A stretch of DNA of 64,000 bases from a virus. The notes under the pieces were generated by a model that saw only the letters and a program-made list of their open reading frames with translations, searched no databases and was not told the DNA's origin. Within the stretch, counting starts at the first letter, position 1; each line of letters begins with the position of its first letter. Shown one piece after another: positions 59,038-64,000 of the stretch. A program made the position numbers and the translations under genes. Location: IMG/VR virus record IMGVR_UViG_3300048074_000119; one strand, 5' to 3'.

Positions 59038-59556
59038 ATGGCCGAGAGCGTCACCGCAATGAACCAAGCTGCACGTCACGCCCTCACCCGGGCGAACGCG
59101 GTGCTCCAGAGCGTGGAGAACCCGCTGAACGTGGCGGCGGAGGAAGGCACGACCGTCCTCGTGCTCGCGGGCCAGGGCTACATGAGCGGCCGCTGGAACA
59201 ACCCGAAGGTCCCCGTCCTCGGGGCGCCTGTCGAGTTGGTCGGCGTCCTCGCCATGTACGCCGGTGCGCTCGCCAACATGATGCTCGAGGGTCCGCCCGT
59301 CGCCGACCGCTGCATGGTCAACGCGGGCACCGCGCTCCTCGGCGGCATGGCGTTCAAGTATTTCGCGGGCCTCGGCCTCAGCCACCGCCCGGCGACGGCT
59401 GCACCGGCTTCCGTGCCGGCCGCGAGCAAGGGTTACGGAGTGGGTCTGGCGACCCCCCGTCACGATGTGATCGGTGGCGCAGTCCCCCGTCACAACATCA
59501 CGGGGGGCGGCGCGCTCTCGGCCACCGAGGCCGCGCGTCTGGCTGCCCAGCGGTAG
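59038..59556 (+). CDS. membrane-associated putative virion protein
   Basis: RBS GGAGGAG; two hydrophobic segments. Confidence 0.65.
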   Translation: MAESVTAMNQAARHALTRANAVLQSVENPLNVAAEEGTTVLVLAGQGYMSGRWNNPKVPVLGAPVELVGVLAMYAGALANMMLEGPPVADRCMVNAGTALLGGMAFKYFAGLGLSHRPATAAPASVPAASKGYGVGLATPRHDVIGGAVPRHNITGGGALSATEAARLAAQR

Positions 59557-59655
59557 TACGTCCGACCCTCCGTCTGAGCCACGGAGAGTTCTCTCACCAG
59601 CGCGCAACAGTCACGAAACCAAGCACACAGACAACACCCTGAAGGAGTTTCGAGC

Positions 59656-60225
59656 ATGAGCTACCACGACATCGTCGGAGCCGACCTCGCGCTGGGCTAC
59701 CGCCACCACGCCCGCGGCCTCGCCATCGGCGCGGACGACGCGGAGCTGGCCAACGCGCTGGCGACCATCCAGGCCCGCGCCCCCTCGCTGGCCCAGGCCC
59801 TCGCCCCCCAGTCCGCCCAGACCGCGATGGTCCGCGAGCTGGCCGCCCGCAACGCCAGCGTCGTCGTGGCCCGTGAGCCCCTCGACAGCCGGACCCTCAC
59901 CCTGCCGTTCCCCGAGACCGTGATCCCGGCGAACAGCGCGGCGACCATCCAGGTCCTCCCGCAGACCCTGTTCCGCTGCGAGCGGTTCGTGATCCAGTCG
60001 GACATCGCGGGCTCGCTCGTGGTCGACGACATCCGCATCGGCACGCAGAGCCAGTTCTCGGCGTCCGGTCCGGTCCCGGCCCGCTGCTTCAGCGAGGTCG
60101 CGGTCGGCGTCGGTACCCTGTACGACACCGCCGAGCCCGGCATCACGATCAGCCTCTCGCTCCGCAACATCAGCGGCAACCCGGTGACCTTCCGGGCCGC
60201 GATGTTCGGCCGCGCGGTCCGCTGA
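59656..60225 (+). CDS. putative major capsid protein, single jelly-roll-like beta-sandwich
   Basis: A/C-rich leader with AAGGAG; strongly biased codons; all-beta C-domain; dedicated terminator. Fold is inferred. Confidence 0.6.
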   Translation: MSYHDIVGADLALGYRHHARGLAIGADDAELANALATIQARAPSLAQALAPQSAQTAMVRELAARNASVVVAREPLDSRTLTLPFPETVIPANSAATIQVLPQTLFRCERFVIQSDIAGSLVVDDIRIGTQSQFSASGPVPARCFSEVAVGVGTLYDTAEPGITISLSLRNISGNPVTFRAAMFGRAVR

Positions 60226-60248
60226 ACCACCCCCGCAAGGGACGCCCC

Positions 60249-60321
60249 CCGCCGGGCTTCGGTCCGGCGGTCAAGCCCCTCGCCTCGCTCCCCCAAGGGC
60301 GGTGCGAGGGGCTTTGCTTTT
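60249..60321 (+). terminator. UUCG hairpin plus intrinsic terminator
   Basis: CCGCCGGGC-TTCG-GTCCGGCGG, then AAGCCCCTCGC/GCGAGGGGCTT followed by TGCTTTT. Confidence 0.75.
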
Positions 60322-60336
60322 CCTCGGGAGACTTGA

Positions 60337-60789
60337 ATGGCCGCCGACAGCATCGGGTATCGGGTCACACACGTCCTTGGCGTCTTCTCGGGTGACCGGG
60401 ACGCTCCGCACCGTCGGACGCTCCGCGAGCGCACGCTGCTGCGCCACCTCTGGTGCATGGTCGAGGACAACCTCGACATCCTCGAGCACGCGGACCCGGG
60501 CGAGATCCTGCACCCGTACAAGTGCGGCACCTGGTACCAGGCCGAGCCCGATGGCCAGGAAGACTGGCTCGACATCCTCTGCGTCAACGACGAGGCCCGG
60601 AAGGGTCGTGGTGCGGACTGCGAAGACCTCGCGGCGTACCTTGCCGCTTGGTACATCTTCCACGGCATCGCGGCGTATCCTGTCTTCGTGTGGCGCTACC
60701 TGCCCGACGGCGGAACGCTCTACCACATCGTGGTCCAGCTCCCTGATGGGTCCATCGAAGACCCCAGCAAGCATCTCGGCATGGGCTGA
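60337..60789 (+). CDS. transglutaminase-like cysteine protease fold protein
   Basis: DCEDLAAY (Cys), YHIVV (His), EDPS (Asp) triad pattern. Confidence 0.75.
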   Translation: MAADSIGYRVTHVLGVFSGDRDAPHRRTLRERTLLRHLWCMVEDNLDILEHADPGEILHPYKCGTWYQAEPDGQEDWLDILCVNDEARKGRGADCEDLAAYLAAWYIFHGIAAYPVFVWRYLPDGGTLYHIVVQLPDGSIEDPSKHLGMG

Positions 60790-61799: not shown

Positions 61800-62789
61800 A
61801 TGAAGACGATCAAGATCGACCTGCGTTTCCAGCGGATGGGCACCACGTGGTGCGCCATCGCCCTCGTCAAGAGCCCGTACTGCCCGGAGCCGCTCGAGAT
61901 CATCACCTGCATCGACACCAAGGACATGATGGCGATGACGGGTGCTGACGCGCCGGTCGCGAGCAGCGAGTGCCGCGTGCGCTCGCGCGACATGTGCCTC
62001 GACAGCGTGCTCGACTCGCTCAGCGCGCCGCAGAACGCGCCGATCGTCGCCCAGATGGCGGAAGCGTTCGACGCCTTCAAGGCGGGCATGCGCCTCTGCT
62101 CGGCGGCGATGAACCACGACCCCCGCGCAACGCTCGCGATCGTGGACCTCCACAAGCGCGCGGAGCACGATGGCGACCCGAACGCGCGCAAGCAGCTCGA
62201 CCTCCTCCGGCAGTGCCTCGAAGCCTGCACGGACGGTCGCTGCTCGTTCGAGTTCGTCATCAGCCCGGCAGCCGTCCAGGCGATCTCGGCGGGCATCAAC
62301 CCCTACTCGGGCCGCGGCGCGCAGGACATGGCGTCGGGCTGGGGTCCCTACGCTCCCTTCCCGATCTCGCTGGGTGACCAGGCGGGTGGCTGGGGTCCCT
62401 ACGCTCCCTTCCCGATCTCGCTGGGCGACCAGGCGGGCTGGGCAGGGTCGCGCGTCAACCGCATGCACCCGTCGAACGGTGCCCGCCAGGGCCTCTGGCC
62501 GAGCGACATGTCCGCGGGCGTCAACCCCTACTCGGGGCGCGGCGCGCAGGACATGGCCTCGGGCGTGAACCCCTACTCGGGGCGCGGCGCGCAGGACATG
62601 GCCTCGGGCGTGAACCCCTACTCGGGGCGCGGCGCGCAGGACATGGCGTCGGGCCGCAACCCGCCGAACGGTCTCGGCGCGCAGCACATGGCCTCGGGCC
62701 GCAACCCGCCGAACGGACTCGGCGCGCAGCACATGTCGTCGGGCCTCAACCCGTTCAGCGGCCTGCGTGCGGCCGAGATGTCGAGCTGA
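61800..62789 (+). CDS. putative virion protein with tandem peptide repeats
   Basis: GVNPYSGRGAQDMAS x3 tandem plus variants. Confidence 0.7.
   Translation: MKTIKIDLRFQRMGTTWCAIALVKSPYCPEPLEIITCIDTKDMMAMTGADAPVASSECRVRSRDMCLDSVLDSLSAPQNAPIVAQMAEAFDAFKAGMRLCSAAMNHDPRATLAIVDLHKRAEHDGDPNARKQLDLLRQCLEACTDGRCSFEFVISPAAVQAISAGINPYSGRGAQDMASGWGPYAPFPISLGDQAGGWGPYAPFPISLGDQAGWAGSRVNRMHPSNGARQGLWPSDMSAGVNPYSGRGAQDMASGVNPYSGRGAQDMASGVNPYSGRGAQDMASGRNPPNGLGAQHMASGRNPPNGLGAQHMSSGLNPFSGLRAAEMSS
62294..62786 (+). repeat. intragenic 45-, 48- and 51-bp repeat units
   Basis: Visible DNA tandem copies at 62337/62388, 62516/62561/62606 and about 62651/62699. Confidence 0.9.
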
Positions 62790-62790
62790 C

Positions 62791-63213
62791 ATGACCTGGC
62801 TGAACCAGTACGCGCACACGCACCACACCCGTGCGAACGGGACGACCGGCGCTGCCAGTGGTCACGAGATGTCGAACGATCCGCACTGTGGCAACACGGC
62901 GATCGGTCGCTCCGTGATCATCGGCAACCGCCGCATCGTGGGGTCCGCGCACGTCGGCGGCCCGCACGGCGGCCACGGTGGGCACGGCGGTGGTCATCAC
63001 GGGCACGGTGGGCACGGCCACCACGGTCACCGCGGCCACCACGGCCGGCACGGTCACGGCGGCCACGTCTTCTCGCCGGGCGGCCCGTACCCCGCCTACT
63101 ACGGGTACGACCCCTACTACTACGAGCCCGAAGAGGTGGTCTACGTCCTCGACCCGACGGCGTACGTCCCTCAGGAGCTCGGCACGCGCACGCGCACGCG
63201 CATGGGGACCTGA
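62791..63213 (+). CDS. His/Gly-rich protein
   Basis: HGGHGGHGGGHHGHGG tract followed by Y/P-rich segment. Confidence 0.65.
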   Translation: MTWLNQYAHTHHTRANGTTGAASGHEMSNDPHCGNTAIGRSVIIGNRRIVGSAHVGGPHGGHGGHGGGHHGHGGHGHHGHRGHHGRHGHGGHVFSPGGPYPAYYGYDPYYYEPEEVVYVLDPTAYVPQELGTRTRTRMGT

Positions 63214-63215
63214 AC

Positions 63216-63881
63216 GTGGAGCCCCGCACCGCCACCATCCTCAAGGCCCTGGCCATCGCCGGGGCCTGCGGCGGCGTGGGCTACGCCGTCTACCGAACGG
63301 TTCGCAAGCCCGAGGCTCCTCTCCCGGCAGCGCCCCCTGTTGCGGCCGCCCCGCCTCCCGCGCCGAAGCCGATCTGGGCAAGCACCATGGACGCGCCCTA
63401 CCAGGCCATCCTGATGGACGGCTACGCGAAGGGTGCGGCTGACCGAGCGGTGGGGGCAGAGCCTCGGTTCGAGGATGATCCCTACACGCGCTACAAGGCC
63501 AAGCTGGACGCCAACAGCCCGAACGATCTCCCCGATCTCTTCGCGATGATGAGGGCGGACCTGCGCGGGAGCCACGGCTACGTGCTGACGAAGGACCCGT
63601 CTGCCACGGGACCGTCGGCGCAGCTGGACGTGGTGCTGCGCATCGACGCTTGGCGCAACGGCTACGCCGCCGGATACAACGGCCAGAAGCCCAACGCGAC
63701 GATCTCGGAGATGAACGTGTGGCCGACGACCTTGGGGGTGCTCAAGTCGGACGGCTGGGTCACCGACCAGTATTGGGTCCAGCGCGCGGTCACGGGCCGT
63801 GCGTCGGTCTTGGGCGTTCATGGGGTCGCGGGCAGCCGCGGCGCCGCATCGCTGGGCAACTTCGCAGGAAGGACTCGCTGA
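63216..63881 (+). CDS. membrane-anchored protein with Pro linker
   Basis: N-terminal TM; PAAPPVAAAPPPAPKP. Confidence 0.65.
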   Translation: MEPRTATILKALAIAGACGGVGYAVYRTVRKPEAPLPAAPPVAAAPPPAPKPIWASTMDAPYQAILMDGYAKGAADRAVGAEPRFEDDPYTRYKAKLDANSPNDLPDLFAMMRADLRGSHGYVLTKDPSATGPSAQLDVVLRIDAWRNGYAAGYNGQKPNATISEMNVWPTTLGVLKSDGWVTDQYWVQRAVTGRASVLGVHGVAGSRGAASLGNFAGRTR

Positions 63882-63977
63882 TGGACCCCCGCACCGCCAC
63901 CATCCTCAAGGCCCTGGCCATCGCCGGGGCCTGCGGCGGCGTGGGCTACGCCGTCTACCGAACGGTTCGCAAGCCCG
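63222..63977 (+). repeat. 91-bp exact direct repeat (63222-63312 and 63887-63977)
   Basis: Identical DNA encoding PRTATILKALAIAGACGGVGYAVYRTVRKP. Confidence 0.95.
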
Positions 63978-64000
63978 CAGCCCCCGCCGGGGTGACGGTG
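63881..64000 (+). CDS. membrane-anchored protein (runs off window)
   Basis: Same N-terminal anchor as 63216. Confidence 0.6.
   Translation, partial: MDPRTATILKALAIAGACGGVGYAVYRTVRKPAAPAGVTV

Follow-up and report, generated by a model that had tools for sequence, protein, structure and literature searches.

Bacterial viruses in which a jelly-roll shell surrounds an inner membrane are, to our knowledge, known only with small genomes, those of the Tectiviridae (PRD1, PR772), PM2, FLiP and phiCjT23 ranging from 9 to 15 kb, and the largest published tailless bacterial virus with an internal membrane of which we are aware is Salisaeta icosahedral phage 1 (SSIP-1), at ~44 kb. Within this realm, giant genomes are regarded as a feature of the viruses of eukaryotes, and all phages of more than 100 kb described to date are, as far as we know, tailed. 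Here, we describe positions 59038 to 64000 (the stretch) of a 64,000-nucleotide (nt) DNA sequence (the window, i.e., the whole length that was analysed) belonging to the virus record IMGVR_UViG_3300048074_000119. The stretch is the start of a ~25-kb, single-strand, lineage-conserved module, possibly for particle building, in which membrane-anchored proteins are enriched and which encodes, just past the window end, a protein of 294 amino acids (aa) modelled as two consecutive jelly rolls. It is tentatively proposed that the element to which it belongs is a tailless, membrane-lined bacterial virus with a jelly-roll shell and a large genome.

The element resembles the small viruses named above in that many small anchored proteins are encoded in one operon, in the presence of a membrane-anchored, wall-cutting transglycosylase (comparable to P7 of PRD1), in the self-association predicted for the 294-aa protein, and in that no tailed-phage genes were seen. 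It differs from them in a genome that is roughly 10 to 20 times larger (about 160 to 200 kb), in the lack of any sequence similarity, in the carriage of tRNAs, an array of clustered regularly interspaced short palindromic repeats (CRISPR), DnaB and RuvA, and in that neither an FtsK/A32-type packaging ATPase nor a protein-primed polymerase was seen in the surveyed DNA, which amounts to ~134 kb and comprises the window with ~66 kb downstream and 3.8 kb upstream, reached via related contigs. With SSIP-1 it has in common a genome that is large for a tailless membrane virus and a structural block full of proteins without families, the element being approximately four times larger and the likeness being one of description.

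Organization and conservation of the module

Codon-usage gene calling placed 109 genes on the window (67% G+C), the last nine of which run head to tail on the plus strand, starting past a divergent ParB-like gene (Table 1). The consecutive genes reported in the original prediction were recovered, as eight of these nine, g102 to g109, occupy the whole of the stretch, with a strong coding signal (G+C content at third codon positions, 0.85 to 0.93). Genes of this block were observed at 92 to 100% DNA identity on many independent contigs and are, therefore, regarded as real genes and not as chance frames. The stretch occurs in bioreactor and sludge metagenomes from ~20 studies, and parts of it are covered, at low depth, by RNA-library contigs from three studies, which is not proof of transcription. 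Scans of all block genes, g101 to g109, returned no Pfam or PHROG family match.

Related contigs of 88, 76.7 and 118.7 kb were retrieved by exact-protein look-up, and homolog clusters were located on contigs of 125,688 and 199,967 bp. On these related contigs the gene run continues for ~20 kb past the window, the stretch representing the 5′ third of the ~25-kb plus-strand module whose gene order is given in Table 1.

Table 1. Features of the module and the wider element in map order; plain coordinates refer to the window, prefixed ones to related contigs, and E values are those of phmmer matches in the distant 116-kb relative L030.
Feature	Location	Strand	Length (aa)	Description	E in L030
g1	3..353	+		End of an N-anchored 163-aa protein	
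g2	359..1027	+		N-anchored paralog of g105 and the 682-aa protein	
g31	16185..17333	+	382	C-terminal 110 aa paralogous to the g103 domain (40.5% identity, E 1e-22)	
g53	28912..29889	+	325	g103-type domain (E 6e-12), two tandem copies by alignment; orthologs P0059-P0064	
ParB-like gene	57603..58571	-		Divergent from the block	
g101	58705..58923	+	72	Small, basic; heads the plus-strand run; in all related contigs (gene call)	
g102	59038..59556	+	172	Membrane protein; hydrophobic segments at ~aa 58-78 and 92-113	
g103	59656..60225	+	189	Ala-rich N-terminal ~75 aa and ~110-aa C-domain of a multi-copy family	
Terminator-like element	60249..60325	+		Two G+C-rich hairpins (60249-70, 60273-60314), then a U-rich tract; directly 3′ of g103	
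g104	60337..60789	+	150	Transglutaminase-fold (papain-like) Cys-His-Asp protein	3e-38
g105	60821..61798	+	325	N-terminal anchor at aa 9-29; N-domain common to g2 and the 682-aa protein	1e-26
g106	61800..62789	+	329	In-frame tandem repeats of 51 nt (x2) and 45 nt (x5.5); repeat tracts at 62337-62437 and 62505-62752; weakly conserved	2e-8
g107	62791..63213	+	140	His/Gly-rich, variable in length; 147-aa ortholog at 78% identity	
g108	63216..63881	+	221	N-anchor at aa 7-25; extra tandem paralog	
g109	63881..64000	+	~180	5′ part of an N-anchored paralog, cut by the window end; repeats the g108 anchor	
282-, 234- and 236-aa proteins				Anchored paralogs	
682-aa protein			682	g105-type N-domain	
67-aa protein			67	C-terminal hydrophobic segment	
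78-aa protein			78		2e-5
111- and 113-aa proteins				Pair of paralogs	
294-aa protein	L007:10001-10885		294	Two-jelly-roll protein	7e-18
375-aa protein			375	SLT-type protein	1.5e-28
C-anchored proteins				Several	
347-aa protein			347	Coiled coil	2e-42
353-aa protein			353	g103-type; followed by others	
Cas12f1-like protein	L012:14862-16448		528	Cas12f1-like_TNB domain; ~30 kb downstream of the CRISPR-like array of the window	
IS3-family transposase pair	L045:2397-3595				
Large serine recombinase	L045:5803-7548			Resolvase, Recombinase and Zn_ribbon_recom domains	
RecA/KaiC/DnaB-like ATPases	L045:10001-13036		291, 354, 256	86-aa gene between the first two; DUF2786 follows	
Fibre/spike-like cluster	L047:7317-14940		393, 575, 370, 237	YadA_stalk (393 and 575 aa), faint beta-helix (370 aa), SO2946-like_C (237 aa); ~55 kb downstream	

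By a simple hydropathy rule, hydrophobic anchors are present in 14 of the 29 module proteins, compared with 11 of 98 (11%) of those encoded elsewhere in the window (p = 5e-5, Fisher test); a location of these proteins in a virion membrane would be a reading of their sequences. The transmembrane protein claimed at the head of the stretch is g102, in which a hydropathy scan detected one or two hydrophobic segments, and the several N-anchored proteins claimed after it are represented by g105, g108 and g109. Paralogs had also been noted at the window start, and g2 indeed shares its anchor and a ~125-aa domain with g105. Local iteration of hidden Markov models assigned g2, g105 and the downstream 682-aa protein, with this anchor and domain in common, to one family (family A), and g108, g109 and the downstream 282-, 234- and 236-aa proteins, with a common anchor, to a second (family B). 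The Atlas model of the 682-aa protein, with a predicted local distance difference test score (pLDDT) of 0.30, was unusable. For g105, previously described as a transmembrane protein with a LysM domain, the N-terminal anchor was observed, whereas the LysM assignment was not supported, there being no Pfam match (including PF01476) at E <= 0.1 and nothing in PDB sequences.

The 375-aa protein harbors an SLT-type domain followed by a C-terminal hydrophobic segment. Its match to phrog_196, a "baseplate hub" family, was considered as a possible tail gene and rejected, as the match is limited to the lysozyme-like C-terminus of the profile (positions 387 to 522 of 536; E 1.4e-10), coinciding with a weak Pfam SLT match. 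The 111- and 113-aa paralogs are candidates for single jelly-roll penton proteins, this fold being putative.

A distant relative, L030 (116 kb, 66% G+C), preserves much of this arrangement, including a relative of the jelly-roll protein. The order g104-g105-g106, then the 78-aa protein, the jelly-roll protein and the SLT-type protein, and then the 347-aa protein is retained there, as determined by phmmer, and it is, therefore, concluded that the genes of the stretch and the jelly-roll gene form one conserved unit.

The 294-aa protein and the survey for hallmark genes

The protein on which a jelly-roll shell would depend has five close homolog clusters and, in a profile search, 46 distant relatives of 240 to 330 aa at E <= 1e-3, all of them without a family name in Pfam or PHROG. 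Sequence and profile searches of the PDB yielded nothing useful, and no match was obtained for the protein among GenBank phages or in PLSDB, nor for its distant relative P0018 among GenBank phages. An AlphaFold2 model built from a 44-sequence alignment (pLDDT 79.9; predicted template modeling [TM] score 0.73) comprises two consecutive eight-stranded beta sandwiches, at aa 70 to 178 and 192 to 292, with a domain packing that appears double-jelly-roll-like; an earlier model from 6 sequences was poor (pLDDT 53) and was discarded.

In an exhaustive structural comparison, every match that spanned both domains was a double jelly-roll protein, namely, the capsid proteins of FLiP (Z 8.0 over 191 aa at 5.1 Å), PRD1 (P3; 7.3 to 7.5, 201 to 205 aa, 5.6 to 5.9 Å), STIV (6.9 to 7.3, 196 to 198 aa, 5.7 Å) and phiCjT23 (6.8 to 7.0, 179 to 185 aa, 6.2 to 6.3 Å), together with cellular GH172/DUF2961 proteins (7.2 to 7.7, 205 to 214 aa, 6.3 to 9.2 Å). 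The same capsids were recovered by Foldseek at E values of 5e-5 to 4e-4 (FLiP, 4.7e-5), and an Atlas fold search gave TM-scores of no more than 0.43. Unlike the cellular double jelly rolls (~370 aa), with which there is no sequence match, the 294-aa protein is encoded in a viral, membrane-related context and not in a carbohydrate-use locus.

When three copies of the protein (aa 58 to 294) were modelled together, the interface score ipSAE reached 0.42, the best control scoring 0.00; of the proteins solved as pairs, 20 of 30 attained this mark, as against 1 of 23 of those solved as single chains. The three-copy runs agreed in at least 72% of contacts, with partner pLDDT values of at least 69. 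The protein is, on this modelling, predicted to self-associate, which would fit a capsomer but also a fibre.

In the ~134 kb, neither the Pfam hits on record nor the Pfam and PHROG scans, which divergent forms can escape, included a terminase, portal, HK97 capsid, sheath, tube or baseplate family. The statement that no HK97 capsid, portal, terminase or tail gene is visible in the window was thus upheld for the scanned window proteins, and a wider search, the positive outcome of which had been named as a refutation, was likewise negative as far as it extends: at least 27 kb lies beyond the surveyed DNA (the last ~16 kb of the 76.7-kb contig and ~11 kb upstream), or ~66 kb if the 199,967-bp contig is the genome. 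The original prediction had also proposed to discriminate between an FtsK/A32-like packaging ATPase and a terminase, and neither type was found; FtsK, HerA and A32-type ATPases were absent from the Pfam and PHROG hits of the ~134 kb and from a Walker A scan of ~100 kb, the only P-loop proteins being DnaB, an ABC-like protein of 292 aa and three RecA/KaiC-like ATPases.

Competing interpretations of the element

Under the reading that we tentatively favour, the jelly-roll protein would, after the manner of PRD1-type viruses, form the capsomers of an icosahedral shell round a lipid membrane modified by the virus; the anchored proteins would sit in that membrane and serve in assembly and entry, the transglycosylase would open the cell wall at entry, and g104 may process or cross-link particle proteins. 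The lineage of unusually large lipid-containing bacterial viruses that had been suggested for this DNA is retained as a possible, though unproven, interpretation, to which the anchor enrichment, the two-jelly-roll protein and the anchored transglycosylase lend support. Further points in its favour are the synteny of the module in L030, the lack of tailed-phage genes in the surveyed DNA, which makes up most of the genome, and the absence of the lineage from marker-based virus collections. A fuller version, in which a tailless internal-membrane double jelly-roll virus of 160 to 200 kb would carry a ubiquitin-like system alongside its tRNA arrays and CRISPR array, have ~14 or more membrane proteins in the virion and rely on an unrecognised packaging system, is held with slightly greater reserve.

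Several observations weigh against this interpretation. The fold matches of the 294-aa protein are middling (TM-scores of 0.2 to 0.37), best Z values of 7 to 8 are typical of the structure tool for models without a clear match, and BFVD also returns tail proteins, built of tandem beta sandwiches, with comparable E values. In most viruses of the PRD1-like type the packaging ATPase gene adjoins the capsid gene, and none was found here. The prior is also low, as we know of no published bacterial virus of this build above ~44 kb.

An alternative of nearly equal probability is that we are dealing with a huge tailed phage of the ordinary kind, albeit a divergent one, the terminase, portal, HK97 capsid and tail genes of which lie in the 27 to 66 kb outside the survey, a space sufficient for a complete head and tail module. 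The conserved block would then be an accessory envelope module, functioning in lysis, superinfection exclusion or host-envelope remodelling or supplying ejected envelope-spanning proteins, and the two-jelly-roll protein would be a trimeric adhesin, a receptor-binding protein or a carbohydrate-binding protein. Like the huge tailed phages (>200 kb, Caudoviricetes), the element has a large genome, tRNA arrays, a CRISPR array with a small Cas12f/TnpB-like protein, and replication and repair genes, and DUF5131 and a methyltransferase add to a gene content typical of that group; the Ro60/Ubl accessory module, common to a 137-kb phage record in IMG/VR, is a further likeness to large phages. The tailed morphology of every phage above 100 kb known to us points in the same direction, as do the tail proteins among the BFVD fold matches, a glucosaminidase/endolysin-like gene, and the clusters neighbouring g103 and g104 in the Atlas, which are mostly labelled Uroviricota. 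A packaging ATPase must, moreover, exist, and since none was found in 134 kb, part of the morphogenesis set must lie elsewhere. The fibre/spike-like cluster downstream, with its beta-helix protein, could represent tail fibres; it is flanked by divergent operons and unattached to a recognisable tail or baseplate module. Against a tailed phage stand the lack of any tail, head or terminase family match in the surveyed DNA and the two-domain matches in the PDB, which are capsid-type double jelly rolls and not tail proteins. Furthermore, we know of no tailed phage in which ~14 or more anchored proteins are encoded in one conserved block of 25 kb; the block is late-operon-like in its layout and syntenic in the distant relative, and its double-jelly-roll-like protein is a further difference from the huge tailed phages.

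That the element is not viral and is instead a large plasmid or integrative element, the module representing a cell-surface or membrane apparatus, is considered improbable. The ParB-like gene adjoining the block would suit such an element, as would the DnaB of the window, which is most similar to that of P1-type phage-plasmids (39 to 41% identity), the large serine recombinase and IS3 transposase, and the lack of recognised capsid-packaging genes. However, no conjugation ATPase, relaxase or secretion-system family is present among the Pfam hits on record, no match was obtained in PLSDB or in 185,579 species genomes, phage-type accessory genes are carried (DUF5131, a deoxynucleoside monophosphate phosphatase [phrog_318] and the tRNA array), and the element recurs as a discrete contig of 76 to 200 kb in many samples.

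The g103 protein had been nominated as an all-beta capsid candidate. Its C-terminal domain of ~110 aa recurs in g31, twice in g53, and in the downstream 353-aa protein (E 2e-30). Homolog searches detected no relative of g103 outside this lineage and none in L030. In profile-profile tests, the family was unrelated to the jelly-roll family, the 111/113-aa pair and a 184-aa protein of L030, and only weak, non-significant similarity was obtained to L018:1898-2488 and to window positions 2008 to 2415. Because its domain family is multi-copy, confined to this lineage and missing from L030, a role as main shell protein is considered improbable for g103; an abundant protein in an accessory, vertex or surface position is more likely, and the all-beta fold is putative. 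It is followed by a sequence that folds into strong hairpins (-64.1 kcal/mol, z -1.9) and that, on its sequence features, may act as a terminator, even though a simple terminator scan did not flag it; given these hairpins and the U-rich tail, g103 may be highly expressed. A shell built from the g103 family as vertical single jelly rolls of the P23-77/SH1 type, with g103 and the two-domain g53 as main coat and the 294-aa protein in a minor or vertex position, is very improbable, as the terminator-like hairpins expected after a highly expressed gene, the existence of single and tandem domain forms and the occurrence of g103 sequence (its 5′ half) among RNA-library contigs from three studies (weak, as DNA carry-over is possible) are set against a family that is restricted to this lineage, absent from a relative that keeps the rest of the module, and scattered among non-structural genes (at 16185 and 28912).

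Between g103 and its 353-aa paralog, an 80-nt segment (window positions 60046 to 60124; L006:10630-10709) is 95% identical, the proteins being ~38% identical overall, which looks like a recent gene conversion as judged from sequence.

Further genes, distribution and significance

The transglutaminase-like assignment of g104 was sustained. Cys95, His130 and Asp142, in the motifs DCEDL, YHIVV and EDPS, are invariant in orthologs down to 51% identity, and the Atlas model (pLDDT 0.78) matches viral hypothetical clusters at TM-scores of 0.78 to 0.84 and a cluster that is 93% Transglut_core at 0.65. As no Pfam match, including Transglut_core (PF01841), was obtained at E <= 0.1, the protein is described as a distant fold relative of Transglut_core and not as a family member by profile. 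It is among the module genes most strongly conserved in L030 and has no match among GenBank phages.

The end of the block appears as a strain-variable hotspot, marked by the presence or absence of g108 and by differences in repeat length in g106 and g107 between strains. The position of g108 has no DNA counterpart on the 95%-identical contigs L001 and L020 (blastn layout versus L001), the adjoining g109 is 92% identical to L007:3959-4501, and orthologs of g106 measure 283, 297, 298 and 314 aa, the repeat count varying by strain (283 to 329 aa). Elsewhere in the window, ARAGORN detected a tRNA-like gene with a four-base anticodon (gacc; 32464 to 32547) directly upstream of tRNA-His (anticodon atg). 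Ahead of the window start, on the far side of the genes preceding it, ~1.9 kb (L018:1-1897) contains no called gene.

Downstream of the module are genes for the ABC-like ATPase, a phosphatase, a Cas12f/TnpB-like protein, an FGE-sulfatase-like protein and DUF3037, followed further on by glucosaminidase-like and RdgC-like genes. The large serine recombinase and the IS3-family transposase pair on L045 could indicate that the element is temperate or integrates into its host, and that insertion sequences move through it. On the same contig, the three RecA/KaiC/DnaB-like ATPases have their best PHROG match in phrog_26214, a family of unassigned function.

IMG/VR was queried with g103, g105, P0056, the VWA/Ro60-like protein, P0023, P0029 and alignment A5. 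These protein and alignment queries gave no match to the lineage in IMG/VR, and none was obtained in the searches of GenBank phages and PLSDB; the only real matches in IMG/VR, from the VWA/Ro60-like query, were a 137-kb and a 68-kb record, both without the jelly-roll family, Terminase_6N and Phage_capsid, and two 19-aa matches were dismissed as spurious. The 137-kb record, IMGVR_UViG_3300009037_000004 (L034-L040; 59% G+C), has eight genes in common with the element, seven at 41 to 55% identity and DnaB at 20%; these are the Ro60-like/VWA gene, the ubiquitin-like set and a few neighbours, and the Ro60/Ubl set is an accessory module that moves between otherwise unrelated large phages. A scan of metagenome contigs returned two short contigs only, and a full-text literature search brought up no account of so large a bacterial double jelly-roll virus. 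The lack of a lineage match in marker-based virus collections is in keeping with an element that would escape marker-based virus calling.

Should the element prove to be a tailless membrane virus, its genome would be approximately four times the largest so far published for a bacterial virus with this architecture and would fall within the size range of the giant viruses of eukaryotes, and the jelly-roll/membrane architecture would have been scaled up independently in bacteria. It would also follow that marker-based virus callers miss such elements and that "huge phages" are not all tailed. Even if the element is tailed, a conserved 25-kb block in which anchored proteins accompany a capsid-like jelly-roll protein would add a new kind of module to those described in phages.

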